Positions 1,170 through 18,303 of a stretch of 18,342 nt of DNA are shown here, one piece after another (within the stretch, counting starts at the first letter, position 1; each line of letters opens with the position of its first letter). This stretch comes from a virus. The position numbers and the translations under genes were made by a program. The stretch lies in UHGV virus genome UHGV-1773631; one strand, 5' to 3'. The notes below the pieces were generated by a model. It saw only the letters and a program-made list of their open reading frames with translations, was not told the DNA's origin and did not search any database.

Positions 1170-2699
1170 TTAAAATGCGGAAGGTTCATCTTCCATAATA
1201 ATTTTTATATCTTCAATAGGAACTAAATCATAGTTCCATTTTGTAACAAATTGCGGCTGAATTCTACAAATACCTAAATCAGAAGCGCACCATAAATAAA
1301 CTCCTTTATAAGAACCTCTTCTGTTTTTATAAACTGAAATCTTTTTGTCAGGAATTTGAAAATTATTTGTAGACAAAATTGGCTTTAATGTTTCTAAATC
1401 CTCTTCTGTTACATCCAAAATAATTTCACCTATATCCACCTTATCTGCTAAGCTTTTTGCACCTCTTAACAAACTTTGGTCAGGAGTATCAGTATTGCGG
1501 AAATCACCTGAAAGTTGTGTTGCAGTAATAAGAAAAATGCCATACTCATTACAAATATCTTTAAGTCTAACACTTAACATAAAAAGAATATTATCTTCTC
1601 TTAATCTTACTCCACCACTTCGTCTTGTGACTTCTTCAAGAATTTTCATTGTACTTTGAATGTAATCAAAACAGACATAAGCTATATCATGTTCTCTAAT
1701 ATTTCTTTTAACAGTATTTTCTACATCCATTAAAGAATAATCAGGTAATAATTCTACCCAAATAGGTGATTCAGATAAAATTTTTCCTGCTTCAATAACT
1801 CGTTCTTCTTCTCCTGCTTTGTATTCACCTCTAAGAATATGGTCTTCATTTACCGCAGAAAGAAAAGCTAACATCATAGTTTGAATTTCTTCTTTATCTT
1901 GCTCAGTACCAATAAATAAAGTTGGCAAAGAAGCTCCATTTTTAATCCACATACCAAAATTAGTATCATAAATTTTATTACAAGCAAAATTACAAGCATC
2001 TGCAATTAAAGCTCTAGTTTTACCTGCACCAGTAGCAGCAGATCTAAGATACAATTTTCTAAGTCTTGCACCTCTAGTAACAGTATTAACCAGTCTCCCA
2101 TAAAGTGGAGCACCAACTTCAGGATTCTTTTTAAAATTTTCAATTAATTCTAAAATTCCTTCTCCTGCTTGGTATCCTCCAATAACATTATTGTCAATAT
2201 ATTTGACTTTAATATCATCAATTCGTTTATCAATAATATCAGCTATTTCAACAAGAGAAGTAGAATCCAGCCAGTCTTCTTGCTTTTGTTTCTTTTTTAA
2301 ATCTAAAATATTATTAGTATCATATAGAAAAGAAACATCTACTCCAAATTTATCATAAGCTCTTAATAAGGTAAATTTTTTTAATCGACTATAATAATAT
2401 TTGAAAGTATCTCTAGTAGCTAATTCCGCTGCTTTAGTTACATACTCTAAACCGCCGTTTGCTTTAAATACAGCTTCATATTTAGGTCTAACTGCCAAAT
2501 AATCAACAATAGTATCTAAAGTAATTGCCGATTTTGCTTCATGTATATTGTACATAGACCCAAAAATGATTTTATGAACTTCTTCTGTAAAATCTTCTTC
2601 AAAAATAGGAAATTCATCAGGTGCGTCTAAAATTGAATTATCATTAAAAACACAACCAATAACTTGAGCTACCGCTGTTAAATCTATATATTTACTCAT
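1170..2699 (-). CDS. replicative DNA helicase, DnaB-like
   Basis: 509 aa; DnaB N-terminal-domain-like start (LTAVAQVIGCVF...EDFTEEVHKIIFGSM), Walker A-like SAATGAGKT, Walker B-like CFDYIQS. Confidence 0.8.
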   Translation of the reverse strand: MSKYIDLTAVAQVIGCVFNDNSILDAPDEFPIFEEDFTEEVHKIIFGSMYNIHEAKSAITLDTIVDYLAVRPKYEAVFKANGGLEYVTKAAELATRDTFKYYYSRLKKFTLLRAYDKFGVDVSFLYDTNNILDLKKKQKQEDWLDSTSLVEIADIIDKRIDDIKVKYIDNNVIGGYQAGEGILELIENFKKNPEVGAPLYGRLVNTVTRGARLRKLYLRSAATGAGKTRALIADACNFACNKIYDTNFGMWIKNGASLPTLFIGTEQDKEEIQTMMLAFLSAVNEDHILRGEYKAGEEERVIEAGKILSESPIWVELLPDYSLMDVENTVKRNIREHDIAYVCFDYIQSTMKILEEVTRRSGGVRLREDNILFMLSVRLKDICNEYGIFLITATQLSGDFRNTDTPDQSLLRGAKSLADKVDIGEIILDVTEEDLETLKPILSTNNFQIPDKKISVYKNRRGSYKGVYLWCASDLGICRIQPQFVTKWNYDLVPIEDIKIIMEDEPSAF

Positions 2700-3231
2700 T
2701 CATATCTTCCTCCAAAAAAGTAAAAAATCTTTTCCTTTTTCTCATTGGCTCTCTTGTTTTAGGGGGAGTGATATGAATTTCTTCTGTAGGCAGAATAAAA
2801 TTTTCTATTTCTTTATTTTCATTTCTTTGCTGATTTTCCCAAATTGTATAATAATAATTTCTAGCATTTTCATACTGATAAGGGACAATTCCAATTCTGC
2901 CTTGAGCCTTTCCTAAATCTCCACCTTTTACTTCAAAATGGTATTTTAAAGTTTTTAAAATACCAGAATAAGTATAATGATTTTCATTTACATAGTCTTT
3001 AATTTGTTTATAAACTACTTTAGGAATTATATCATAATTAAAAAGTTGTTTAATATATTCTTCTAAAGCAATCCGGTTTTTTTCTTCTTCTGCAATATTT
3101 TGACTATATCTTTCATAACATAACTTATGTGCATATCTTCTTTTATTAGGAATTGGTATACATTCTTCTTTATCTCGGTCAAATGTACTTCCGCACACAA
3201 AACATTTTACTTTATGTGCAATTTTTATCAC
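2692..3231 (-). CDS. hypothetical zinc-finger protein
   Basis: 179 aa; N-terminal CxxC ... HKLC cluster (KCFVCGSTF...YAHKLCYERY), basic C-terminus; overlaps helicase start by 8 nt. Role not determinable from sequence. Confidence 0.45.
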   Translation of the reverse strand: MIKIAHKVKCFVCGSTFDRDKEECIPIPNKRRYAHKLCYERYSQNIAEEEKNRIALEEYIKQLFNYDIIPKVVYKQIKDYVNENHYTYSGILKTLKYHFEVKGGDLGKAQGRIGIVPYQYENARNYYYTIWENQQRNENKEIENFILPTEEIHITPPKTREPMRKRKRFFTFLEEDMNE

Positions 3232-3264
3232 TTCCTTTTTTAATATTATAACATATATTTAAAT

Positions 3265-3296
3265 AAAAGTCAAGAGGAATTATCCTCTTGACTTTT
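3265..3296 (-). terminator. putative intrinsic terminator hairpin downstream of the Sak4-like gene
   Basis: Perfect inverted repeat AAAGTCAAGAGGA / TCCTCTTGACTTT (3266-3278 with 3283-3295), 4-nt loop, flanked by A/T runs on both sides (could act bidirectionally). Confidence 0.4.
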
Positions 3297-3312
3297 GTCA
3301 TTATTGTTATAA

Positions 3313-4284
3313 TTAATTCATTAAATCTTTCAAATCATGTACAATCAAATCCAACTGTTCAGACTGATCAGGAGTACATTCGCCGACTTTCTTACCCTTA
3401 CCCAAATACTTATCAGTAATTGCGGTAATCTTAACTGCATTTGTTTGATTGCTAGACATCAACTGTCCAACCAAATCCTGAAACTCATTCATCAAACCAT
3501 CAAAATCATATTCAGTATCCTTAGAAACAACCTGTGTGGGTTTATCTGTAATATACTGACCATTTGTTTGCTGAGACTGCTTATCAATAGCTTCAGCAAT
3601 AGCATTTACCAGATTATCATAACTGAAATTAATATAATCAGGAATATAAGCGAATCGACTACCTGCAACAAATCTAGGAGTACCTCTCATATACAAACGA
3701 GTTTTAACTCCATCTTCTGTATTCACAGCAGTAGAATAACCAATAATATCACAAGTTCTTTCACAAATCAAGCGGCCTCTCTTATCAAGAGTAGGAACAA
3801 TCTGATTAAATTCTGCTCCCGATTCATCCTTAAAGACTTTATCTGTGGCATGAGAAATAAGGACAAGACCATAATTTAGCTGTAAAATCTTTCTAATAGA
3901 TTCATCAAATTCATTGCCAACCATTGCATAGCCCTTACCATATGCAAGATCAGCAATTGTATCTACACCTTCACGACTACAGATATAACGCTCACAATAA
4001 CTATAAGCAATATCTGCTGTATCAATTACAATAGTTGAAAACTTTTCTTGTACTTCAGGATTTTTCAATTCCTGCAAAGTTTTCTTAAACTCACCCCAAG
4101 AATTAATTGGCTGGGCGTAAACACCAGGCAATGCATTATAACCTTTCTCGAAAGCTAACAAAAGTGAGCCTGGAAATCTAGAAGCAACTGTCGTCTTACC
4201 ACTCTTAGGTGCTCCGTAGAAAAGAACTGAGTATCCCCGCAAATCTCTTGAAACTTCATGCGGCTTAATATCAAGCAAACCCAT
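3313..4284 (-). CDS. Sak4-like (AAA_24 family) recombination ATPase
   Basis: 323 aa; Walker A GAPKSGKT near the N-terminus followed by the pattern typical of phage Sak4/RecA-like annealing ATPases, plus a C-terminal extension. Confidence 0.65.
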   Translation of the reverse strand: MGLLDIKPHEVSRDLRGYSVLFYGAPKSGKTTVASRFPGSLLLAFEKGYNALPGVYAQPINSWGEFKKTLQELKNPEVQEKFSTIVIDTADIAYSYCERYICSREGVDTIADLAYGKGYAMVGNEFDESIRKILQLNYGLVLISHATDKVFKDESGAEFNQIVPTLDKRGRLICERTCDIIGYSTAVNTEDGVKTRLYMRGTPRFVAGSRFAYIPDYINFSYDNLVNAIAEAIDKQSQQTNGQYITDKPTQVVSKDTEYDFDGLMNEFQDLVGQLMSSNQTNAVKITAITDKYLGKGKKVGECTPDQSEQLDLIVHDLKDLMN

Positions 4285-4324
4285 AAAACAATCTCCTTTT
4301 TAAATAAAATAATTTTAAAGAAAA

Positions 4325-4357
4325 ATATGAATGAGCTTTTTTAAAGCTCATTCATAT
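4325..4357 (-). terminator. putative intrinsic terminator downstream of the SSB-like gene
   Basis: Inverted repeat TATGAATGAGCTTT / AAAGCTCATTCATA (4326-4339 with 4343-4356); on the minus strand it is followed by TTTTCTTTAAAATTATTTTATTT. Confidence 0.5.
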
Positions 4358-4367
4358 AAAATTTTAA

Positions 4368-5324
4368 TTAAAAATCATAATCATTCTTACTAGAATTAAC
4401 CGTAACCCCAGTTCCGCCACCAATAGCGTTATTATTTGCTTTATTCTGATAATCGAGCTGATTCTTCTTAATAGTTGCAAGAGCAATCTCTCGTGCTGCA
4501 ACATAATCCTGAAGCTCAGAAGCAAGAATAGTATCTTCACTATCCCACTCATAAGGAGTCTGCTGCGCCCAATTAACCACATAATCCTTATAAGACTGAG
4601 GAGTTTCTCTCACAATTGCTTCGCCAAAAGCAGACTCTTCCTCGATCTTCTTTACCACAGTCTGAGAAATAATCTTACCCTGAATACGAGTAAAAACTGG
4701 ATTCTTGGGACTTGCTTCCAGTCCTTCAAAATAATCCATCGCCGCAGGATTTACAGCAGTAAACTCAACAGGAAGCAGCGCCTTACGGAAATCAAAAACT
4801 GCACCCTTAATAACAACACGCTCAGGCTTACCTCTCTCATCATCTGCCTCATAACGCACACAATTATTAATCACAATATCTTCATTGAAAGTTGCACTCT
4901 TAGATTCATCAATTCCCTCTTCGGGGCAAACCTCAAGATGAATAAAACCACCTTCAAGGCGTCGATTACTTACCAGCTTTTCCATATCATTCTTATCATA
5001 AAATTCATTCAAAGCAATAGCAGTATCAATTCTTACATACGCCGCATTATCCTTGCCATTATCCATGACATTACCCAGATCATTATTCAAAATTCGCTCA
5101 AGAATATTATAAGTATCATTAGTACCACGAGCAGTAACCGCGGTTACATATCTAAAATGAACAGTAACAACATTCAGACACTTATTATCTGTTGCAATAT
5201 TAACATCACCACGAATATACTCAGTACCAGGATTCTTAGAAGCACTGCCAGAAACCTTCTTTTCAAGCTTGTGACTATGAACAAAACCATTCAAATGTAC
5301 TGCATTAATAAACTTCTTACTCAT
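4368..5324 (-). CDS. putative single-stranded DNA-binding protein (SSB-like)
   Basis: 318 aa; SSB-like N-terminus (MSKKFINAVHLNGFV), Gly/Asn-rich linker and acidic C-terminal tail ending ...NDYDF, reminiscent of the SSB DIPF tail; sits next to the Sak4-like gene. Good RBS AAAGGAGAAAATAATG. Confidence 0.5.
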   Translation of the reverse strand: MSKKFINAVHLNGFVHSHKLEKKVSGSASKNPGTEYIRGDVNIATDNKCLNVVTVHFRYVTAVTARGTNDTYNILERILNNDLGNVMDNGKDNAAYVRIDTAIALNEFYDKNDMEKLVSNRRLEGGFIHLEVCPEEGIDESKSATFNEDIVINNCVRYEADDERGKPERVVIKGAVFDFRKALLPVEFTAVNPAAMDYFEGLEASPKNPVFTRIQGKIISQTVVKKIEEESAFGEAIVRETPQSYKDYVVNWAQQTPYEWDSEDTILASELQDYVAAREIALATIKKNQLDYQNKANNNAIGGGTGVTVNSSKNDYDF

Positions 5325-5400
5325 TATTTTCTCCTTTTGATTTAATTATTTTTTTATTGCCACTTCTGAAAAGAGGCTTTTCTTTTTATTTTCTATAAAT

Positions 5401-5429
5401 ATTGTATAATATTTTTTTTAATTTTTCAA
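5401..5429 (-). promoter_or_regulatory. putative sigma70-like promoter for the SSB/Sak4 unit
   Basis: On the minus strand: TTGAAA (5429-5424), 17-nt spacer, TACAAT (5406-5401); the -35 lies in the last codons of the ThyX-like gene. Confidence 0.4.
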
Positions 5430-6077
5430 TTTACCGCAAGAATGCTTCTCGGTACATTTGCCGAAATATTGACATTTAGGAACAAATAAGTGATCTACCA
5501 AATATTTCCATTCTTCTGAGTAAATAGCAAGTGCTTTTTTTATATCCTGCATAACATTTTGATATTCCCAATAAGCACGTTTACACATTCTTTGATGGGA
5601 CATATCAACTAAATTCCGCAAATTAGTTCTTACTACTACTTTTGTTTCCATACCAAGAGGAAGCAAAAGACTAGCATCTTCAATCGGCATCCCCATATCA
5701 ACTAATACTTTATAATTCTGAGCAATCGACTGCATACTTTCTTCATATTTTTGTTTCATTTCTTTAGAAGTAAAAGAAGGAGAAACAAAAGAAAAAGAAT
5801 CATAGTTGATATAGCGAGTTGATGCCTGTAGTCGTGTGGGGCCACCTGAAATATGAGTATAAAATTCTCTCAAAGTTTTTGCGCTATATCCTTCAAGGAT
5901 CATATAAACTTGTGGAAATTCCATAACTCTTCCATGCCCAGATTCAATACATTCTTTAGCTCTTTTGATATTATTATCTTTATTTGTGATTTTTGCGTTC
6001 CAACATACTCCCGCTTCAACGCCGATAAGATGAAGAGGATTCTTAGTAGTTGCGGATTGGATAATAACTTTGCCCAA
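5418..6077 (-). CDS. thyX: ThyX-like protein (flavin-dependent thymidylate synthase family, divergent)
   Basis: 219 aa; by-eye alignment to canonical ThyX: SGHGRVMEF vs SGHFSVLEH, YTHISGGPTRLQASTRY vs RHRxxxxxxxSQRY, NLVDMSHQRMCKRAYWEYQ vs the ThyX C-terminal helix. The RHR motif reads THI here and the C-terminus carries a Cys cluster (CQYFGKCTEKHSCGK). Confidence 0.65.
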   Translation of the reverse strand: MGKVIIQSATTKNPLHLIGVEAGVCWNAKITNKDNNIKRAKECIESGHGRVMEFPQVYMILEGYSAKTLREFYTHISGGPTRLQASTRYINYDSFSFVSPSFTSKEMKQKYEESMQSIAQNYKVLVDMGMPIEDASLLLPLGMETKVVVRTNLRNLVDMSHQRMCKRAYWEYQNVMQDIKKALAIYSEEWKYLVDHLFVPKCQYFGKCTEKHSCGKLKN

Positions 6078-6102
6078 TTTTATTACACCTCTTTAAGAGA
6101 AA

Positions 6103-6128
6103 TAAAAGGAGGACAAAAGTCCTCCTTT
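6103..6128 (-). terminator. putative intrinsic terminator hairpin
   Basis: Perfect 11-bp inverted repeat AAAAGGAGGAC / GTCCTCCTTTT with loop AAAA; on the minus strand followed by ATTTCTCTT. Lies between the 88-aa ORF and the ThyX-like gene. Confidence 0.45.
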
Positions 6129-6139
6129 TACATTAATTA

Positions 6140-6406
6140 TCAATCATCAATATCGTCAGGGGTAAAGTTCATACCTTCCTCTGTCAACTGAAGCAGTTTA
6201 ATAGCCTTATGAGTACCATCAGGTAGCTCAACCTCAGCGGAAACACGAATACCATAACCCTTACGCTGAATAGCGGAAGTAAAAATACCATCGACCTGAC
6301 GCTTCTCCAAACCCAGTGCGCCAGCCACATCAGCACTCGTCATATCAGTACCAGCGTTATTCTTCAAATACTCAAAAACCTTCTTAGAATTGTCGGACAT
6401 TGCCAT
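6140..6406 (-). CDS. hypothetical small protein, possible helix-turn-helix DNA-binding protein
   Basis: 88 aa; segment MTSADVAGALGLEKRQVDG resembles an HTH/winged-helix recognition region; acidic C-terminus; has its own strong promoter upstream. Confidence 0.4.
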   Translation of the reverse strand: MAMSDNSKKVFEYLKNNAGTDMTSADVAGALGLEKRQVDGIFTSAIQRKGYGIRVSAEVELPDGTHKAIKLLQLTEEGMNFTPDDIDD

Positions 6407-6502
6407 AATTAATTATCTCCTTTTATTTAAATATTTTTTTAATTTATATAATAATCTATGAGTATTATTTCTTTCATAGTTATTAACTTAATTTATGTAT
6501 AT

Positions 6503-6531
6503 ATTATATCAAAAAAATTTTAATTTTTCAA
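6503..6531 (-). promoter_or_regulatory. putative promoter with extended -10
   Basis: Minus strand: TTGAAA (6531-6526), 17-nt spacer, TGATATAAT (6511-6503). Drives the 88-aa ORF. Confidence 0.5.
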
Positions 6532-6729
6532 ATTCTTTTGAATAATTTCATCAATTTCTGCCATAACTTCAAAGCCTTGACCGTGCGGCAACCGCATAAT
6601 CATTTCTGTTAATTGCATAATACGCTTTTCAGCCTTAGCAATTTGATCTTGACTACTGTCTCCATCATTATGGATTTTTTCTAATGCAGTCATTTCAGAT
6701 GCAATTTTTTTAATTTGTTTTTTTGTCAT
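6520..6729 (-). CDS. hypothetical protein (69 aa, predicted helical/coiled-coil)
   Basis: ORF from the track with RBS-like AAGGTTAAGGAAAAAATAATG; no recognisable domain. Confidence 0.35.
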   Translation of the reverse strand: MTKKQIKKIASEMTALEKIHNDGDSSQDQIAKAEKRIMQLTEMIMRLPHGQGFEVMAEIDEIIQKNLKN

Positions 6730-6754
6730 TATTTTTTCCTTAACCTTTATTGTA

Positions 6755-6775
6755 TTTATATTATATTATATTTTT
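6755..6775 (-). promoter_or_regulatory. possible -10 region (tandem TATAAT) upstream of the 69-aa ORF
   Basis: Minus strand AAATATAATATAATATAAATAC about 30 nt upstream of the ATG; the -35 would fall inside the ligase coding end. Confidence 0.3.
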
Positions 6776-6784
6776 TTAAAAAAA

Positions 6785-7882
6785 TCAAGAAAAAATTTCT
6801 TCTATTAAACAATCTTTTGCTGGTTTATCTTCTCTGATTTTAATAAAATGAGGATGCCGCAGAGTGTGTTCATTTTTATCAATTTGCATACAATCAATAC
6901 TGACAACATGATTTAAAAATTCTTCTGGATTTTTAAGAATTAGATTTTTATCTTCATCTGTTAAGCCAGAAGAAACTGTTCCAATTTTAACTAATTTTCC
7001 TGTATTGTCATAGGCTCCTACCTCTAGTGCAGTTTTCCAACCAAAAAAATAAGGTTTAGTAATAGGAGTATAGTTGTCTTTATCTTTAATCCAGTTTATA
7101 TAATAACGTCCTTCTTGCAAACCATCAGGAGTTTCCCAATACTCCCATGTCTCTAAATCTTTTCCTGTATATTTTTTGGTAGCAGGACAAAAACCAATAC
7201 AGACTAAATCCACACTATCTGTACGTTTAATTTTAATAGTAGACCAAGCAGGACGTTTATCAGGATAATACGGCAAATTTTTCTTTTTTAAAACAAGTCC
7301 TTCTCCGCCCACTTTTAAAATAATATCAAGACGTTCTTGAATTTTTGTATCAAAAGCAAAAGCCAATTTAAGAAAATTAAACTGACCCAAATAATGTTTA
7401 TCCCAAATTGCTTTTAAAATTTTATACCTATCCCAAGCAGGACAATTAACTAAATTACATCCATCATATTGAATAATATCATGGATATAATAATGAATAA
7501 GGTTATTCTTTTGTCTTTTGATTGCGGTAGCCGGCAAACACCCCATAATAGTTGTTACTTCTTTTGAAGTTTTTCCTGGATAAAAAATTTCTCCAATTAA
7601 AGTAGTATTAGGAGGAAGACAACTATCTAAAGCCTTCATAATATGAGGGACATTTTCACCCTTTTCAGAATAATATCCAGTTGTTTTAGAAATATTTCTA
7701 CTAAAAAGATAGGAATAATGTTCTGTTTTTTCATACTGATACCAATAACCATCAATTTTTTCTTCAGCAAAATACTCTTTAGAATTTAAAATTTCTGGAA
7801 GTTTATATGCTTCCATATCAGAAGGAATTTTCCAGATTTTCATTGGCGGAATCATTTTAGCTTCTGGATACAATAATATCAC
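6785..7882 (-). CDS. ATP-dependent DNA ligase
   Basis: 365 aa; motif I KIDGYW (KxDG with the adenylated lysine), motif IV-like EGLVLK, motif V-like DLVCIGF, C-terminal motif VI-like LRHPHFIKIREDKPAKDC. Start overlaps the topoisomerase A gene by 4 nt. Confidence 0.75.
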   Translation of the reverse strand: MILLYPEAKMIPPMKIWKIPSDMEAYKLPEILNSKEYFAEEKIDGYWYQYEKTEHYSYLFSRNISKTTGYYSEKGENVPHIMKALDSCLPPNTTLIGEIFYPGKTSKEVTTIMGCLPATAIKRQKNNLIHYYIHDIIQYDGCNLVNCPAWDRYKILKAIWDKHYLGQFNFLKLAFAFDTKIQERLDIILKVGGEGLVLKKKNLPYYPDKRPAWSTIKIKRTDSVDLVCIGFCPATKKYTGKDLETWEYWETPDGLQEGRYYINWIKDKDNYTPITKPYFFGWKTALEVGAYDNTGKLVKIGTVSSGLTDEDKNLILKNPEEFLNHVVSIDCMQIDKNEHTLRHPHFIKIREDKPAKDCLIEEIFS

Positions 7883-10254
7883 TCCTCAATTTTAGATACC
7901 GAATTTATCTTATTATTATTCTTAATAATTTTTACCCCTTGTGCGACTTTACTTCCTAATGTCAATTCTTTTGCTGAAATTTTAATAGTAGATTTATCTC
8001 CCACAATCAATAAATTATTACTATTATTAATTAAACAACAGCCCGCAATGATTCCTCGATAGCCATAAGTGCCTCTTCCACCTCTTTTTTGCAATACAAA
8101 TTCTTTTAATAAAACTTGTTTGCCATTGCCATCTTCACTAATAAAAGCTAGATTATTTTTATTATTTGTAACTGGTAAACAGGTAAATACACTATCTCCT
8201 TCGCGCAAATTAATTCCTTTTACTCCTTGCGCAATCCGAGAAGAAATTGGCATATCTTTTGAATCAAAATGTAAAACAGTGCCATTCTTGGTAATTAATA
8301 ACATTGTCTCTTCTTCAATAAAAGTTACAGCTCTAAGTGCATCATTTTCTTTTAAAGAGATTGCCACAACACCTGTATTTCTTTTAGTATTATTAAATTC
8401 CTCTAAAGCAACCTTTTTAATAATACCATTCTTAGTTACAAAAAAAACATACTTTGCATTTGTTCCTTGATGTAAAGAAGCAAAAGCCATAGGAAATTCA
8501 TTTTTATCAAACTTAATTAAAGTATTTAAATTACTTCCTTTGGAAGAATTAGTCCCTTCTGGGATATTGTTCACCAGCAAACGATACATTTTCCCCTTAG
8601 AAGAAAAAACCATTAAAGTATCAATAGTATTAGTATCACAAATATAAGAAATAATATCATCATTATTTTTAATACCTACACCATTGCGCTTTTGTGTTTT
8701 ATAATTTTTGCTAGGAATGCGTTTAATATTACCAGATTTAGTAATAGATACAACACAATTTTCAGGGACAATATCAGGGACTATTGTTTCAATATTATTA
8801 TCTTCTAAGTTTAATAGTTTAGTTCTTCTCTTATCTCCATATTTATCTTTTAATTCAGTAATAATATTAATTAAAGTATTATCGCGAATTTCTTTATTGG
8901 TTAAAATACCAATACAATATTCAATAAACTTCTTTTTATCTTCCAATTCTTGAATTAATTCATTTTTGTTAATTTTGCTTAATTTGCCGAGTTTCATGTC
9001 TAAAACTGCATTTGCCTGAATTTCATCAATAGAAAGAAAAGCCATCAAACCTTCTTTTGCCATTTGATTATTTTCAGATTGCTTAATAATTTTAATTACT
9101 TCATCAATTTTATCTACCGCGGCGATAAGACCTTCCAAAATATGAACTCTAGCTTCTGCTTTCTCTTTGTCAAAAGTAGTAGAATTAATTAACATGTTTT
9201 CTTGATGTAAAACATAATTCTTAATTAAATCTAACATAGAACAAAGTTTAGGAGTACCATTAACAATAAAGTTCATATTATAAGAAAGGGTAGTCTGCAA
9301 ATCAGTTAATTTAAATAATCTATTTAAAGCAATTTGTGAATTTACGTTTTTCTTAACGTAAAAGATTAACTTGTTTTGTCCAACATTGGATTCATCGTCA
9401 AAATCCTCAATTACTTCTGCCAAAACATCTACATTTTTTTCAATCTGTTCTTTAATTTTATTTCGATAGGTTCTATAAGGAATAGTAGTAAAGATAATTT
9501 TATTATCTTTAATCTCATAATCTCCTTGAATCTTTAAAGAAACAGAAGAATGACCAGTATTAAAAGCAGTATAAATATCTTTGATATTAATAATAGTACC
9601 ACCTAATGGAAAATCTGGCCCAGGTAAATATTTAAGCAGATCGTTAGTATTGGAAATTTTTTTCTGAATAAACGCGATTGCAGTTTCACATACTTCTGTC
9701 AAATTGTGTGGGCTACTATTATGGCTCATAGACACACCAATAGCCTGTCTACCATTGCAAATTGCGTTAGGAAAAAGTGAAGGAAGAATAACTGGTTCCA
9801 TAAATTCACCATTATACGTCTCTTTTGTTGGGACAATATTCTTTTTAAAATCCTTCATCATCAAATCTGCATAAATACTAGGTTTAGCTTCTGTATATCT
9901 AGCAGAAGCCACCATATCATTATTCTCTTGCGTACCCAATGAACCCTGTCCCGCAATTAGAGGATACCGCATAAGATAATCCTGAGACATTTTACATAAA
10001 ACTCCATAGCAACTAGCATCACCATGAAAATAGCTAGTTGCTAATGTACTTCCCACGATAGCGTTACACTTTTTTGTTTTACTTTTGTTATTCATTTTAA
10101 GATAATCTTCCATAGTCCAAAGAATTTTTCTTTGCGCGGAAAGAAGACCATCTTCAATTGAAGGAATAGCTCTATCTGTCAAAACTTCTGAACTATAAGT
10201 TAAAAAGTTTTCTTTGGCTTCATCAAGAATATCAACTTCTGTAATTAAACTCAT
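7879..10254 (-). CDS. type II DNA topoisomerase, A subunit (GyrA/ParC-like)
   Basis: 791 aa; N-terminus AIPSIEDGLLSAQRKILW matches the GyrA winged-helix start; GDASCYGVLCKMSQDYLMRYPLIAGQGSLG and ARYTEAK match the catalytic-tyrosine region (RYTE); C-terminal region has a GyrA-box-like QKRGGRG. Confidence 0.85.
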   Translation of the reverse strand: MSLITEVDILDEAKENFLTYSSEVLTDRAIPSIEDGLLSAQRKILWTMEDYLKMNNKSKTKKCNAIVGSTLATSYFHGDASCYGVLCKMSQDYLMRYPLIAGQGSLGTQENNDMVASARYTEAKPSIYADLMMKDFKKNIVPTKETYNGEFMEPVILPSLFPNAICNGRQAIGVSMSHNSSPHNLTEVCETAIAFIQKKISNTNDLLKYLPGPDFPLGGTIINIKDIYTAFNTGHSSVSLKIQGDYEIKDNKIIFTTIPYRTYRNKIKEQIEKNVDVLAEVIEDFDDESNVGQNKLIFYVKKNVNSQIALNRLFKLTDLQTTLSYNMNFIVNGTPKLCSMLDLIKNYVLHQENMLINSTTFDKEKAEARVHILEGLIAAVDKIDEVIKIIKQSENNQMAKEGLMAFLSIDEIQANAVLDMKLGKLSKINKNELIQELEDKKKFIEYCIGILTNKEIRDNTLINIITELKDKYGDKRRTKLLNLEDNNIETIVPDIVPENCVVSITKSGNIKRIPSKNYKTQKRNGVGIKNNDDIISYICDTNTIDTLMVFSSKGKMYRLLVNNIPEGTNSSKGSNLNTLIKFDKNEFPMAFASLHQGTNAKYVFFVTKNGIIKKVALEEFNNTKRNTGVVAISLKENDALRAVTFIEEETMLLITKNGTVLHFDSKDMPISSRIAQGVKGINLREGDSVFTCLPVTNNKNNLAFISEDGNGKQVLLKEFVLQKRGGRGTYGYRGIIAGCCLINNSNNLLIVGDKSTIKISAKELTLGSKVAQGVKIIKNNNKINSVSKIEE

Positions 10255-10266
10255 TCTTTTCCTCCT

Positions 10267-12147
10267 TTAATCAAAAGTAAAACCAAGCTCAGTAGCGTTT
10301 TCATAAATATATTGTTTGCGGGGTTCTACTTTAACTCCCATTAAAATTTCAAGTAATTCATCTGCTTTTTCTGCATCACTAATAGTAATTCTTTTATAGC
10401 GTTCTTGCTCAAAGCAGACTTTCTGAAGATCACGTGCATTTAACTCGCCCAAACCCTTCGCTCTTACTAGCTCATAAGTGCCTTGATGCTGAGTTTTCCA
10501 CTCTTCAAGTTCTTCATCAGTATAAGCATAGTATTCATTATTCTTCTGACGAATAATGTACAAAGGAGTAACTGCTCTATAAAGCTTTCCTGCTTCGACT
10601 AAAGGCCGCATATAAGTAAAAAAGAATGTAGTTAAAAGTAACTCAATACTAGCTCCATCAGAATCTGCATCCGAAGTAATTACGATTTTATCAAATTGCA
10701 TTTTATCTATATCAAAAGTTTTATCAAAACCTCCACCAATTACTTTAATAATATCGGAGATTTCTTGATTAGCAAGAATCTTTTCAACAGATTGTTTTCT
10801 AGGGCTAATAGTTTTGCCTTTTAACATATAAATACAATCTGTTTTGGGATTCCGTGCTTCAACGGCAGAAGATCCTGCGCTTAGACCCTCGACTAACAGT
10901 AAATTACGCTGGCTTGGATGTTTATTTGTGCAATCAATAAATTTATTACTTAAAGCAACTTTAGCTTTAAGACCAGTTTCTTTTTTGCCCTTATCTCTAA
11001 CAGCTTCTCTAGCTTTTCGAGCTGCTTCTCTAGCTTTTCGAGCATTAATCGCCTTATCCGCGATTTTCTTTATTTCTTTTTCATTTGCTTCAAACCAATA
11101 CTGTAATTCTTGTGCAATAATTCCTGCGAAAGGGTGCATATCAATTTTAACAATTCTACTTTTGGTCTGAGCGTCATAAGCTATACCAGGAGCGGTAATA
11201 TTAAACACTAAATATAATCCTTCTTGGCAATCATCACCGGATAAATTACTATCCTTTTCTTTCAGCCAACCTTTATCTCTAAAAAACTTATTCATTTCTC
11301 TTGTTAGAATAGTTTTAATTTGAGTAATGTGCGGGCCAGTGTCAGTAAGTCCTGTATTAACATAAGGAACAATAGTAGAAAAATATTTATCAGTATAAGT
11401 TAATACTAAATTTAATTCATTCTTATTATCTTTAAAATCAATTTTAAGTCTATTTTTAATAATTTCGCTATTTTTGTCTACAGTAGAATCAACCAAATCA
11501 GTTAATCCATTCTTAGAGAAAAAAGTTTTTTCATTTAAAGTAATAGTTAAACCTGGACATAAACAAACTAAAACTTCAAAAAGATTATTAATAATTTTTA
11601 AATCTACTTCTGGGTGAGTAAAAAATTCTTCACTCGCTTGCCAAGTAACAACAGTACCAGATTCTTTATCATTTTTTACTTTACCAGTTTTGCGGTTTTT
11701 GAAAATTCCTTCTTCAAAAGAAACTTCTTCAAAGTTTCCTTTTTGATAACTAAGTACCTTTGTCCAATGACTTAAAAATACAACTAACTTACTGCCGATT
11801 CCGTTTAGACCTAACGCGGTACCTTCATAAACACCATCTTCAGTATATTTACCAGAGGTGTTAAGCACACTAAAAGCAGCTTCAAGAATTGTTTTTCCAT
11901 CTTCTCTAGTGGAATTAATTAAAAAACCTTGCCCATTATCTTTAACTGTAATTACATTATTATCTGAAATAGTTACATTAATTTCAGTGCAATGACCTGC
12001 TTTAAACTCATCAACTGCATTAGAAACAATCTCAATTAATAGCTGAGTTGAATATTCAGTAGAACCAACATATACTCCAGGTCTAAGTCTTGTAAATTCT
12101 AACGGAGTAAGACTTTGAATTGAATCTTTATTATATAAATTATTCAC
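10267..12147 (-). CDS. type II DNA topoisomerase, B subunit (GyrB/ParE-like ATPase plus TOPRIM)
   Basis: 626 aa; LEFTRLRPGVYVGST, EIVSNAVDE and DNGQG (GHKL ATPase N-box/G1), TOPRIM-like EGLSAGSSAVEAR and ITSDADSDG. Contains a duplicated AREAARKAREAVR segment. Confidence 0.85.
   Translation of the reverse strand: MNNLYNKDSIQSLTPLEFTRLRPGVYVGSTEYSTQLLIEIVSNAVDEFKAGHCTEINVTISDNNVITVKDNGQGFLINSTREDGKTILEAAFSVLNTSGKYTEDGVYEGTALGLNGIGSKLVVFLSHWTKVLSYQKGNFEEVSFEEGIFKNRKTGKVKNDKESGTVVTWQASEEFFTHPEVDLKIINNLFEVLVCLCPGLTITLNEKTFFSKNGLTDLVDSTVDKNSEIIKNRLKIDFKDNKNELNLVLTYTDKYFSTIVPYVNTGLTDTGPHITQIKTILTREMNKFFRDKGWLKEKDSNLSGDDCQEGLYLVFNITAPGIAYDAQTKSRIVKIDMHPFAGIIAQELQYWFEANEKEIKKIADKAINARKAREAARKAREAVRDKGKKETGLKAKVALSNKFIDCTNKHPSQRNLLLVEGLSAGSSAVEARNPKTDCIYMLKGKTISPRKQSVEKILANQEISDIIKVIGGGFDKTFDIDKMQFDKIVITSDADSDGASIELLLTTFFFTYMRPLVEAGKLYRAVTPLYIIRQKNNEYYAYTDEELEEWKTQHQGTYELVRAKGLGELNARDLQKVCFEQERYKRITISDAEKADELLEILMGVKVEPRKQYIYENATELGFTFD
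10965..11006. repeat. tandem direct duplication (2 x about 21 bp) inside the topoisomerase B gene
   Basis: GCTTCTCTAGCTTTTCGAGC occurs at 10965-10984 and again at 10986-11005; in frame, it encodes the duplicated AREAARKAREA peptide. Confidence 0.6.
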
Positions 12148-12634
12148 CCAATACCTCCTTAACAGTCACTCTACCAGTAGCTAAATCATCAGCAAGTTCA
12201 TTGCCTTCAATACCAGCATGACCTTTAATTTTTCTTAAATCAATCTTTCTATTCCATTTATTATATATTATATCATAAAATTTTATTAAATCCAAATTTT
12301 CAGGAGTCGATTTATCTGCTTTCCGCCAATTATTATTTTTCCACCTGTACATCCAATCATTGAAAGTATTTACGCAATATAAAGAATCTGTATAAACAAT
12401 AGGATAAGTAAAAGAATCCGCTGAAACTCCATAGTTATACAAAGCCCAAAGAATAGCTTTCATTTCTTCTCTGTTATTTGTAGTTCCAATAGTTTGATGA
12501 GCAAAAGCATCTACTAAATGTAAATTTTTGGGGTCTTTAAGATACTTGTAAACAACTACTCCATAACCTCCAGAAGCATCTTTACTACCATTTTTTAAAG
12601 TTGAGCCATCAGTGTAAATAATAGTACCTATGAT
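12140..12634 (-). CDS. rnhA: ribonuclease H (RNase HI-like); start codon non-canonical or gene disrupted
   Basis: The track ORF 12140-12463 starts at an internal Met (MKAILWAL...GHAGIEGNELADDLA). The same frame is open upstream to a TAA at 12635-12637 and encodes the essential N-terminal motif (I)GTIIYTDGS...TNNREE. The only in-frame candidate starts near the RBS GGGAG (12641-12645) are ATC (12632-12634) and ATA (12629-12631). Confidence 0.65.
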   Translation of the reverse strand: MIGTIIYTDGSTLKNGSKDASGGYGVVVYKYLKDPKNLHLVDAFAHQTIGTTNNREEMKAILWALYNYGVSADSFTYPIVYTDSLYCVNTFNDWMYRWKNNNWRKADKSTPENLDLIKFYDIIYNKWNRKIDLRKIKGHAGIEGNELADDLATGRVTVKEVLGE

Positions 12635-12713
12635 TTAATTCTCCCTTCTTTGATTTTCTTAAATAAAAGTAGTATAATATTATTAATAAATCAATCTTTT
12701 ATTCTTTAATAAT

Positions 12714-12742
12714 ATTATATCATTTTTTTAAAAATAAAACAA
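12714..12742 (-). promoter_or_regulatory. putative promoter with extended -10 for the RNase H / topoisomerase / ligase unit
   Basis: Minus strand: TTGTTT (12742-12737), 17-nt spacer, TGATATAAT (12722-12714), immediately downstream of the strong terminator hairpin. Confidence 0.45.
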
Positions 12743-12747
12743 ATAAA

Positions 12748-12782
12748 GGGTTATAAACTCACCTTTGGTGAGTTTATAACCC
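12748..12782 (-). terminator. intrinsic terminator after the lysis genes
   Basis: Perfect 16-bp inverted repeat GGGTTATAAACTCACC / GGTGAGTTTATAACCC (12748-12763 with 12767-12782), 3-nt loop, followed on the minus strand by TTTATTTGTTTTATTTTT. Confidence 0.7.
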
Positions 12783-12791
12783 ATATAATCT

Positions 12792-13133
12792 TCAAATCGG
12801 TCCAAAAACGTCCGGTTCATCGGAAGAAGTGGGCGTTTGTGGCGTCAGATTATTCATCACAGTTTCATATTTTATGCCATTTTTAGTATTCTCACGAGTG
12901 GCTTTATTGTAATAAAAAGCTTGACTAACTGCATAAGCAGCCCAAGGTAAACTGGCTTCCGCAGCCAACCAAGGCAAAGAGCCAGTAAATCCTTCGTGAA
13001 TGCAATAAAATGCTAGAATAATATGAGCAAGAGAATGAACCCATATTAAAGCAGATTCTTGAGCTAAAAGGACTTTTGAAAATTCTTTTTTCTTTTTTCT
13101 TTTGTTTCTATTTTTTTTAACGAAGCTTATCAT
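12792..13133 (-). CDS. putative holin-like small membrane protein
   Basis: 113 aa; two hydrophobic helix-length segments (ALIWVHSLAHIILAFYCI and SLPWLAAEASLPWAAYAVSQAFYY), highly basic N-terminus, overlaps the 3' end of the endolysin gene by 17 nt. Assignment rests on position and topology only. Confidence 0.4.
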   Translation of the reverse strand: MISFVKKNRNKRKKKKEFSKVLLAQESALIWVHSLAHIILAFYCIHEGFTGSLPWLAAEASLPWAAYAVSQAFYYNKATRENTKNGIKYETVMNNLTPQTPTSSDEPDVFGPI

Positions 13134-17199: not shown

Positions 17200-17578
17200 T
17201 TTGTTTTTTTACAATTTCAAAATATTCTTTAAGTTCTTTTCTTTCTTTTTCTGTATTTATTTTTTTAATTTCTGTCTTTTTCCAAATTTTATATTTTAAC
17301 ATTTCTACATAATTTGTAAAAATAATACGTATATTATTGTCTGTTAAATATTTTCGTGTAGAGAAAGGCTTTGAAAAAACAACCGAATATTTTTGTAGTT
17401 CATAATTTTCTGGACTTAAATTATAGAAAGAAATAAATTCTTTTAATTTTAAAACTACATATTTATGTTTCCTTACAATTTTACAATCTAGTTTATATTC
17501 ATCATAATCATATATAAAACAACCTAAAATTATTACTCCAGTAAAAGGTAATGTTAATCCTAGTATTAATAGTACCAT
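17174..17578 (-). CDS. hypothetical membrane protein
   Basis: 134 aa; N-terminal hydrophobic segment MVLLILGLTLPFTGVIILGCFIY, then a Lys/Glu-rich soluble region. Confidence 0.4.
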   Translation of the reverse strand: MVLLILGLTLPFTGVIILGCFIYDYDEYKLDCKIVRKHKYVVLKLKEFISFYNLSPENYELQKYSVVFSKPFSTRKYLTDNNIRIIFTNYVEMLKYKIWKKTEIKKINTEKERKELKEYFEIVKKQIEEFDKNV

Positions 17579-17580
17579 AA

Positions 17581-18303
17581 TTATTCTCCTTGAGCAGAAA
17601 AGATATGTTCATCAAAAGTATCTAAATCAAAAAGGATAATTTGCTTACTCCAATGAGTACCTAAATCAAGATTAACCTTTTGATTATTATTATACCAACA
17701 AGCTCCACCTTCATATTTGGGAGGATTGCGAAATTCTCCTATATCTTCTATCATTAGAGGAATTGGGGTATGGCCATGAATAATTAATTCATTTGGATTA
17801 ATTAAACATCTAAATTTATAATGTAATCTATTCCAAAGAAAATCAAATTCATCACCAGAAATATTATTAGGAGAAAAACCTGCATGACTTAAATGAATTT
17901 TAATTCCATTTTTATTAGTGTATTGTTCATAAACTGGAAGTTTATTAATTAAATTTAAATACTCAATAACATTTTTTTCTTTAGACCAGTCTAGTAAAGT
18001 AGATAAACCTCCATTATTCATGTGACGATAAATATCATCTCCATATAGACATCTTTCATTTTTTAAAAATTCTCTTCCAGAATCTACTAACATTTGTTCA
18101 TGATTTCCTTTAAGAAGAGTAAATCTTTCATCTTTTAAAATTTCTTTAAGTATTTTCCAACCTTCTGTCCCTCTGTCAATTACATCACCCAGCACGAACA
18201 CTTTATCTTCTGCTTGAATGAAATTTTTAATCTGCTTAAACAAATTTGAATTACCATGAAGGTCAGTAAAACAATAAACTTTACCCTTATTCATAAACAT
18301 CAA
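17581..18303 (-). CDS. Ser/Thr protein phosphatase, PPP family (lambda phosphatase-like)
   Basis: 240 aa; canonical PPP motifs in order: DLHG (CFTDLHGN), GDVIDRG, GNHE. RBS AAAGGAA upstream. Confidence 0.8.
   Translation of the reverse strand: MMFMNKGKVYCFTDLHGNSNLFKQIKNFIQAEDKVFVLGDVIDRGTEGWKILKEILKDERFTLLKGNHEQMLVDSGREFLKNERCLYGDDIYRHMNNGGLSTLLDWSKEKNVIEYLNLINKLPVYEQYTNKNGIKIHLSHAGFSPNNISGDEFDFLWNRLHYKFRCLINPNELIIHGHTPIPLMIEDIGEFRNPPKYEGGACWYNNNQKVNLDLGTHWSKQIILFDLDTFDEHIFSAQGE

Follow-up and report, generated by a model that had tools for sequence, protein, structure and literature searches.

The RNase H Reading Frame and Its Start Region

The stretch of virus genome UHGV-1773631 analyzed here, 18,342 nucleotides (nt) long and referred to as the window, belongs to an uncultured gut phage of about 136 kb with a G+C content of 30%, and all genes of the window are carried on the minus strand. 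The gene under study, found on contigs of 130-138 kb, encodes a ribonuclease HI (RNase HI), and its full-length frame occupies positions 12140..12634 on the minus strand. The frame comprises 164 codons when counted from an ATC at 12634-12632 and 163 when counted from the adjoining ATA at 12631-12629, and it ends with a TAA at 12142-12140. No ATG, GTG, or TTG occurs in it before codon 58, and its translation most probably begins at one of these two near-cognate codons, behind an extended Shine-Dalgarno (SD) sequence.

The frame opens with ATC ATA GGT ACT ATT ATT TAC ACT GAT GGC TCA, which reads G T I I Y T D G S after the two candidate start codons. It is bounded upstream by an in-frame TAA (12635-12637, minus strand) directly before the ATC; this stop forms the last three bases of the AATTAA that separates the ATC from the SD sequence, AGAAGGGAG, and no start codon lies between it and the preceding in-frame stop. 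The first canonical start in frame is the ATG of codon 58 (12461..12463, minus strand), from which gene callers begin a product of 107 amino acids opening with MKAILWAL. The 57 codons that precede it (12464..12634, minus strand) include those for D9 (GAT, 12610-12608) and E57 (GAA, 12466-12464). In every other minus-strand gene of the window the corresponding start-less leader spans at most 12 codons, and no other long one was found in about 38 kb of the phage, made up of the window and 20 kb of sister-contig flanks with about 45 genes. The 164-codon frame is not a chance open frame. A preliminary description of this DNA had already placed the conserved aspartate and glutamate upstream of the first ATG; D9 and E57 do precede codon 58, and on re-reading of the window all of its coordinates and its account of the sequence proved exact.

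Identity and Fold of the Full-Length Product

The 164-residue translation matches the Pfam family PF00075 (RNase_H) along residues 4-153, which cover 4-137 of the 141 profile positions (E = 1e-26; 94.2 bits, the cut-off being 25.8), while the 107-residue product matches profile positions 63-137 only (E = 1.7e-15). Further matches of the full-length frame are PHROG 531, 'Rnase H' (E = 4e-35), and, in a sequence search of the PDB, E. coli RNase HI (E = 1e-15; about 31% identity). In the alignment with the E. coli enzyme, D9, E57, D83, and D149 correspond to D10, E48, D70, and D134, and all four are invariant among 35 aligned sequences. The set of four catalytic carboxylates is complete only if the 57 upstream codons are translated, and M58 aligns with E. 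coli L49, one residue beyond the catalytic glutamate.

An AlphaFold2 model built from the 35-sequence alignment reached a mean predicted local distance difference test (pLDDT) of 94.3 and a predicted template modeling score (pTM) of 0.90. Its secondary structure begins with strands at residues 2-13, 21-32, and 39-49, followed by helix A at 53-68, and the 57 start-less codons accordingly encode β-strands 1-3 and the beginning of helix A, along with two of the four catalytic residues. The best PDB matches in Foldseek were E. coli RNase HI structures (probability 1.00, TM 0.70-0.76), with 151 aligned columns on the 151-residue target 1rnh (E = 1.5e-12). As modeled, the 164-residue product has the RNase H fold, with a five-stranded mixed sheet and helices; a product started at M58 would retain just two of the five sheet strands and one half of the active site, and the start-less part is, on this model, indispensable for fold and catalysis. 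The gene therefore probably encodes a functional RNase HI that is complete at about 163-164 residues. E. coli RNase HI (rnhA; PDB 1rnh, 2rn2) shares the fold and all four DEDD residues with the phage protein, which differs from it by an insertion, KYLKDPKNLHLV, in the hairpin of strands 2 and 3. Unlike the phage gene, E. coli rnhA starts with ATG.

Conservation and Selection in Related Phages

The start region was compared in 15 related contigs (L001-L013, L098, L102) that come from 14 different samples, represent at least five lineages, and were assembled by different pipelines (ENA, Logan, JGI, and IMG/VR). Nucleotide identities to the window include 99.97%, 98.2%, 96.9%, and 91.4%. ATC ATA GGT ACT was read in all 15, and the SD core appears as GGGAG or AGGAG with no other variation. 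The surrounding positions do change: the upstream stop is TAA in the window, TGA in L011, L012, and L098, and AAA in L007; three of the six bases between the SD and the ATC vary among lineages; and downstream of ATC ATA there are synonymous changes (TAC/TAT, GGC/GGT, TCA/TCG). Judged from these alignments, the ATG-less state was in place before the separation of lineages with differences at 30-40% of their synonymous sites.

Such a pattern bears on another explanation, raised in the preliminary description, in which the ATA was originally an ATG and its A stems from a recent mutation or from an error in sequencing, to which an error in assembly may be added. The ATA is one transition away from ATG, and more distant homologs, with at most 63% identity, do start with ATG (M-I-x-I-Y-T-D-G-S). 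Against this, ATC ATA recurs in assemblies of 14 samples, including the 91% lineage with its 30-40% synonymous divergence, and in the protein alignment the methionine of the homologs stands opposite G3 and not opposite the ATA codon. The comparison with related genomes that had been suggested as a check was carried out, and ATG was found at this position in none of the 15 contigs. With ATG in none of these contigs and ATC ATA shared by lineages so far apart at synonymous sites, the error or recent-mutation account is refuted, and its remaining probability is negligible.

Between the window and L011, the representative of the 91% lineage, the 57 start-less codons show 16 synonymous and 3 non-synonymous differences. 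The proportion of synonymous sites that differ (pS) is 0.42 and that of non-synonymous sites (pN) is 0.023, giving a pN/pS of 0.054, compared with 0.090 in the rest of the gene. Eight distinct alleles contain no stop and no frameshift in these codons. The low pN/pS and the intact frame together indicate that the codons ahead of the first ATG are translated and are under functional constraint.

The same data bear on whether only the 107-residue product from the ATG at 12463, or nothing, is made, the 57 codons being the remnant of a 5'-truncated pseudogene. All gene callers, including the public third-party annotation (TPA), do give products of 107, 127, or 139 amino acids: the identical 107-residue protein (P0003) occurs on at least 24 contigs under the nr name 'MAG TPA: ribonuclease HI [Caudoviricetes sp.]', and for two close relatives the called products are fragments of 139 and 127 amino acids. 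Purifying selection and the intact frame in all eight alleles argue against a remnant, and the sequence directly upstream of the ATG, ...ACAAATAACAGAGAAGAA, holds no SD. This case, named in the preliminary description as one that would overturn a non-canonical start, is very unlikely, since the product would lose β-strands 1-3 and two catalytic residues.

Searches outside this group of contigs returned little. A DNA search of the GenBank phage collection found no close relative and only a 62-nt match in Staphylococcus phages, a search of viral contigs with GyrB as the probe returned just the same IMG/VR contig, and the loci recovered around the DUF2828 gene of related phages did not extend to their RNase H genes.

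Shine-Dalgarno Sequence, Spacing, and Choice of Codon

The extended SD AGAAGGGAG lies at 12641..12649 on the minus strand, with its core GGGAG at 12645-12641, and in lineages L011, L013, and L098 it is a perfect AGAAAGGAG. Calculated for a Firmicute-type 16S anti-SD tail, the duplex has an energy of -13.1 to -13.4 kcal/mol, which ranks sixth to eighth among 42 sites. Following GGAG, the ATC stands at a distance of 6 nt and the ATA at 9 nt. Among 29 GGAG genes of this phage, the spacing to the start is 5 nt in one, 6 in one, 7 in nine (the mode), 8 in six, 9 in four, and 10 in seven, so that 26 of the 29 fall within 7-10 nt and one lies at 6 nt. ATA is favored over ATC because 9 nt fits the bulk of the phage's genes and 6 nt is at their lower edge, and most of the near-cognate starts mapped by experiment in Firmicutes are AUA; the start is probably, though far from certainly, ATA, and both codons may contribute. 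A start at the following ATT ATT (codons 5-6) was rejected, as their distance from the SD is 18-21 nt and L013 has GTT as codon 5.

The initiation region of another gene of the window resembles this one. The 134-amino-acid gene 17578 (window 17555-17600, minus strand) reads GGAGAATAATT ATG GTA CTA TTA, and the RNase H start region (12610-12650) reads GGAGAATTAAATC ATA GGT ACT ATT A; the two share GGAGAAT...GGTACTATTA, and the RNase H version looks like the ATGG of gene 17578 with an extra A. The likeness is borderline, with a local alignment z of about 3.2, equaled by 1 of 500 shuffles, and the 10-mer GGTACTATTA also occurs in gyrA (9600).

A PhoH-like gene (13971..~15227, minus strand) has as its sole SD a GGAG at 15235-15232, followed by A GTG GAA ATT ATT ATT AAA. 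The called GTG stands 1 nt after the GGAG, a spacing that is exceptional in the set of 29 genes. The ATT at 15221-15219 stands at the modal 7 nt and aligns with the ATG start of sister lineage L011 (GGAG A GTG AAA ATG ATT TAT AAA), and by this comparison the PhoH-like gene may have a second AUH start (AUA, AUC, or AUU) in this phage.

A Second, Independent Lineage

A baseline for the family was taken from a JGI metagenome scan, in which 79 complete RNase H loci, distant genes of at most 51% identity and not relatives, included none without a canonical start upstream of the catalytic aspartate. Among about 75 RNase H loci on viral contigs, 48-56% identical, one, L204, lacked a canonical start. 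It belongs to a second lineage represented by L204 (a 201-kb viral contig; 2440-2974), L264, L265 (2830-3318), and L266, from four samples, with an RNase H 55% identical to that of the window. The gene order is GyrB, two small open reading frames (ORFs), RNase H, and GyrA, and RNase H overlaps gyrA by 8 nt, as it overlaps gyrB in the window.

In all four contigs the start region reads AGAAAGGAGATGACTA(C/T)CC ATT TTA AG(C/T) AT(T/G) TAT ACx GAT GGA, with L204 carrying AAGGAAGGAG where AGAAAGGAG stands in the others. The first ATT falls exactly at the ATG of the homologs (M-x-x-I-Y-T-D-G-S), and the SD, AGAAAGGAGAUGA, matches 12 of the 13 positions of the anti-SD complement. The ATG within GGAGATGA is out of frame; it is part of this 12-of-13 match and of the last codons of an upstream 59-codon ORF. 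Three of the four contigs have no canonical start before the catalytic aspartate, and in L204 the first one in frame is codon 90. Over the N-terminal 60 codons, pN/pS is 0.05-0.18. A homopolymer indel in L204, where deletion of a T would put an upstream ATG in frame, was considered and dropped; four independent assemblies keep TTTT.

The nearest outside relatives of the window's gene, 61-66% identical, start with ATG, and the nearest relatives of the second lineage, 83-86% identical, have an ATG start directly after a GIY-YIG endonuclease gene. Since the nearest relatives of both lineages start with ATG, the two AUH starts arose separately.

The recurrence also bears on the question of selection. 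A non-canonical start could be real and yet unselected, a slightly deleterious loss of the ATG that was tolerated through the strong SD and hitch-hiked. The small number of lineages, the lack of significance of the two-isoleucine invariance at this divergence, and a possible second case of ATG in one sister lineage and ATT in another, at the PhoH start, which hints at tolerance, all fit such a history. However, one ATA-to-ATG back-mutation would suffice to bring back a canonical start, and it is absent from the 15 contigs and the window; the SD is still among the strongest in the genome; and the same gene gained an ATT start independently in the second lineage, also with an extended SD. An unselected start is thus considered rather unlikely.

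Codon usage in these phages shows a peculiarity of its own. Codon 30 of the second-lineage RNase H is TAG in L264, L265, and L266 and CAG in L204, and the neighboring HNH endonuclease ORF (L265:3311-3733) contains three in-frame TAGs and ends with TAA. The RNase H homologs of L208, L209, L258, and L261 also carry TAG, in L208 and L209 at a position where a relative has glutamine. Going by these sequences, TAG appears to be a sense codon in the related phages, probably one for glutamine.

Leader, Promoter, and Phage Context

Upstream of RNase H, a 113-amino-acid ORF (3' end at 12792, minus strand) precedes an intrinsic terminator at 12748..12782 (minus strand), which was found by a terminator scan and closes the upstream lysis-module genes. 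The terminator consists of a 16-bp stem (GGGTTATAAACTCACC / GGTGAGTTTATAACCC), a 3-nt loop, and a T-run. The loop (~12764-12766) is AAA in the window, L001, L009, and L011 and TTT in L002, L007, and L013, while the stem is the same in all lineages compared; the switch looks like a hairpin-loop inversion polymorphism. The endolysin of this phage combines a C39-like peptidase domain with an SLH domain.

Between the terminator and the frame lies an A+T-rich intergenic region of 113 nt (12635-12747). As read from its sequence, a probable sigma-A type promoter for the RNase H-gyrB-gyrA unit lies at 12714..12742 (minus strand), with a -35 element TTGTTT (12742-12737), a 17-nt spacer ending in TG (12722-12721), and a -10 element TATAAT (12719-12714), the latter of the extended type, TGaTATAAT. 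This candidate is unchanged throughout an alignment of seven sequences. A promoter scan did not call it, because its -35 element fits the consensus at three of six positions. The intergenic region differs from that of L011 at 8 positions (7%), compared with 30-40% at the synonymous sites of the adjacent gene, and the promoter and SD explain just part of this conservation. A riboswitch or other structured leader was considered and dropped: the Rfam search of the window gave no match, and leader folding revealed no structure above shuffled controls (z = 0.11).

This layout also limits the ways in which the N-terminus could be produced by recoding, that is, by frameshifting, stop read-through or reassignment, termination-reinitiation, or splicing of an intron. 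Related phages reassign TAG, homing endonucleases and introns are abundant in this phage group, and in the second lineage the 59-codon upstream ORF stops 2 nt before an ATT or ATG. From the promoter to codon 10, however, no ATG, GTG, or TTG exists in any frame apart from an ATG that overlaps the extended -10 element, and would lie upstream of the transcription start, and a three-codon TTG ATT TAT TAA 50 nt upstream. The stop before the ATC is TAA, TGA, or AAA depending on the lineage, and another in-frame TAA follows 8 codons upstream with no start between the two, so that read-through leads nowhere. The genes of the window phage contain no in-frame TAG, and no group I or group II intron would fit into the 113 nt that separate the terminator from the start, in line with the empty Rfam search. 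Recoding is accordingly regarded as highly improbable. A special tRNA encoded by the phage was likewise rejected: the tRNA scan of the window found none, and a scan of 38 kb of the phage gave tRNA-Leu(CAA) alone, whose gene lies at L099:406-489, about 9 kb past the high-coordinate end of the window; other tRNA genes may be present in the roughly 100 kb beyond the region scanned.

Downstream, the gyrB gene begins with a GTG at 12147-12145 (minus strand), overlapping the 3' end of RNase H by 8 nt, and has its own SD, AAGGAGG, at 12160-12154 (minus strand). It encodes a GyrB of 626 amino acids and is followed by genes for GyrA, DNA ligase, ThyX, an AAA_24 protein, and a DnaB-type helicase. The replication module (window 1170-10254; L100:11545-21530) has the Pfam domains YorF and Phage_SPbeta_YorH, and it encodes a PolIII-alpha type polymerase that aligns along 99% of its length with YorL of Bacillus phage SPbeta and relatives, at 38-39% identity. 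These similarities place the phage as a putative distant relative of the Bacillus SPbeta group.

Homing-endonuclease genes (LAGLIDADG, GIY-YIG, and HNH) are present in some and absent from other sister contigs that are otherwise near-identical, as seen by comparing L008, L009, L011, L012, L101, L102, L265, and L267-L272. They occur in or beside the genes for PhoH, gyrB, the AAA_24 protein, a UvrD-like helicase, and polIII-alpha, and in the P0116 lineage one lies just upstream of RNase H. The window carries uninterrupted versions of the genes that are invaded elsewhere.

Proposed Mechanism of Attenuated Initiation

The features expected of a near-cognate start are found together at this locus: there is no early canonical start, the SD stands at a functional spacing, codon and SD are conserved, and the upstream part is under purifying selection. 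The non-canonical ATC or ATA start proposed in the preliminary description is supported, as far as sequence analysis goes, by the invariance of the codons, the low pN/pS, and the strong SD. Translation is thus likely to start at a near-cognate AUH codon, most likely the AUA at 12631-12629 and possibly the AUC, behind the extended SD.

In the proposed mechanism, AGAAGGGAG, presented in an unstructured A+U-rich leader, would place the AUH codon in the ribosomal P site. AUH codons are read poorly by the initiator tRNA and discriminated against by IF3, and for both reasons the output of RNase H would be a small fraction of that from an AUG. RNase H could in this way be kept scarce even as the first gene behind a strong promoter shared with gyrB and gyrA, each of which has its own strong SD and canonical start. 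Excess RNase HI would destroy replication primers or origin R-loops, which is one possible reason for a low level. The independent ATT lineage makes low-level expression control of a nuclease more plausible, and sensitivity to IF3 or to the translation state of the host is possible.

Several points weigh against this interpretation or narrow it. At the observed synonymous divergence, the invariance of the two isoleucine codons is not statistically significant by itself, and because ATC and ATA are both invariant, conservation cannot separate them. In L266 an ATG replaces the second ATT, which makes the first ATT a candidate and not a certain start in the second lineage. The anti-SD tail assumed for the duplex energies may not be that of the host. 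Initiation at AUA or AUC and the formylmethionine N-terminus are themselves predictions from sequence, and the suggestion that low RNase H expression is a selected trait of attenuation draws on analogy and on recurrence in two lineages.

Precedents in Bacteria and Phages

Near-cognate initiation has been characterized in several bacteria, most extensively in Staphylococcus aureus. In this species AUA is the start codon of infC, ccpN, and citZ and AUU that of cvfC1, each preceded by an extended SD (PMC13009471). The output of these starts in reporters was about 10%, and up to 30%, of that of AUG; the starts were proven by initiating-ribosome profiling and reporters, and the AUA of ccpN is conserved in B. 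subtilis (PMC13009471). As in the phage RNase H gene, the sole possible start in the S. aureus genes is AUA or AUU, a long SD stands at normal spacing, both elements are conserved, and the gene can be the first of an operon. The S. aureus genes are cellular regulators or metabolic genes, whereas the phage gene encodes a replication nuclease whose initiation site is predicted, and it offers two adjacent AUH codons (AUC AUA), unlike the S. aureus cases.

Escherichia coli represents a stricter setting, with AUA, AUC, and AUU giving 1-2% of AUG and infC and pcnB as the only confirmed natural cases (bioRxiv 10.1101/063800). In these two genes, an AUU start holds expression low, as is proposed for the phage RNase H. 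The AUU start of E. coli infC belongs to an autoregulatory loop, in which IF3 represses its own start. The phage product is an RNase HI without similarity to IF3, and a feedback loop of the infC type is therefore inapplicable; the principle of the weak start alone is common to both.

Additional parallels come from low-GC Gram-positive hosts and their phages. Translation of the ebpA gene of Enterococcus faecalis begins at an ATT that lies 120 bp ahead of the annotated ATG and attenuates expression (PMC4447247). It resembles the phage gene in that a downstream ATG was annotated in place of a rare upstream start, in this case in a low-GC Gram-positive host, and it differs in encoding a pilus tip protein and in having a start validated by mutagenesis and lacZ fusions, where that of the phage is a computational assignment. 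For orf28 of Streptococcus thermophilus phage TP-J34, an AUU start was predicted and resequencing ruled out a sequencing error (PMC3952083). This is likewise a phage gene with a predicted AUH start, but it is a different gene, described in a single phage pair, with no selection analysis and no recurrence in an independent lineage. No paper that connects RNase H genes with non-canonical starts turned up in a literature search.

Implications for Phage Biology and Annotation

Standard gene callers accept ATG, GTG, and TTG only. It is for this reason that a catalytically dead 107-residue 'ribonuclease HI' has been reported on at least 24 contigs. Gene callers also give shorter fragments for relatives, and the same error will hide other attenuated genes in viral metagenomes.

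Among conserved genes of bacteria and phages, very few have AUA, AUC, or AUU as their start, and the present case adds conservation at the level of populations. Conservation across many metagenomes, together with recurrence in the same enzyme family, points to selection on the weakness of the start and not to accident. A more far-reaching idea is that gyrase-adjacent phage RNase HI genes have been repeatedly selected for AUH starts and that the weak start senses the initiation fidelity of the host. Such a sensor would agree with the long SDs and the AUC/AUA and AUU starts of the two lineages, which do not demonstrate it, and the idea is considered unlikely. If true, RNase H synthesis would be confined to times in infection at which IF3 discrimination is relaxed, for example when phage mRNA floods the ribosomes, and the removal of primers and R-loops would be timed relative to the start of replication. 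At the level of the gene itself, an ATA-to-ATG swap provides a simple, testable model of the advantage that a phage may draw from keeping RNase H very low.

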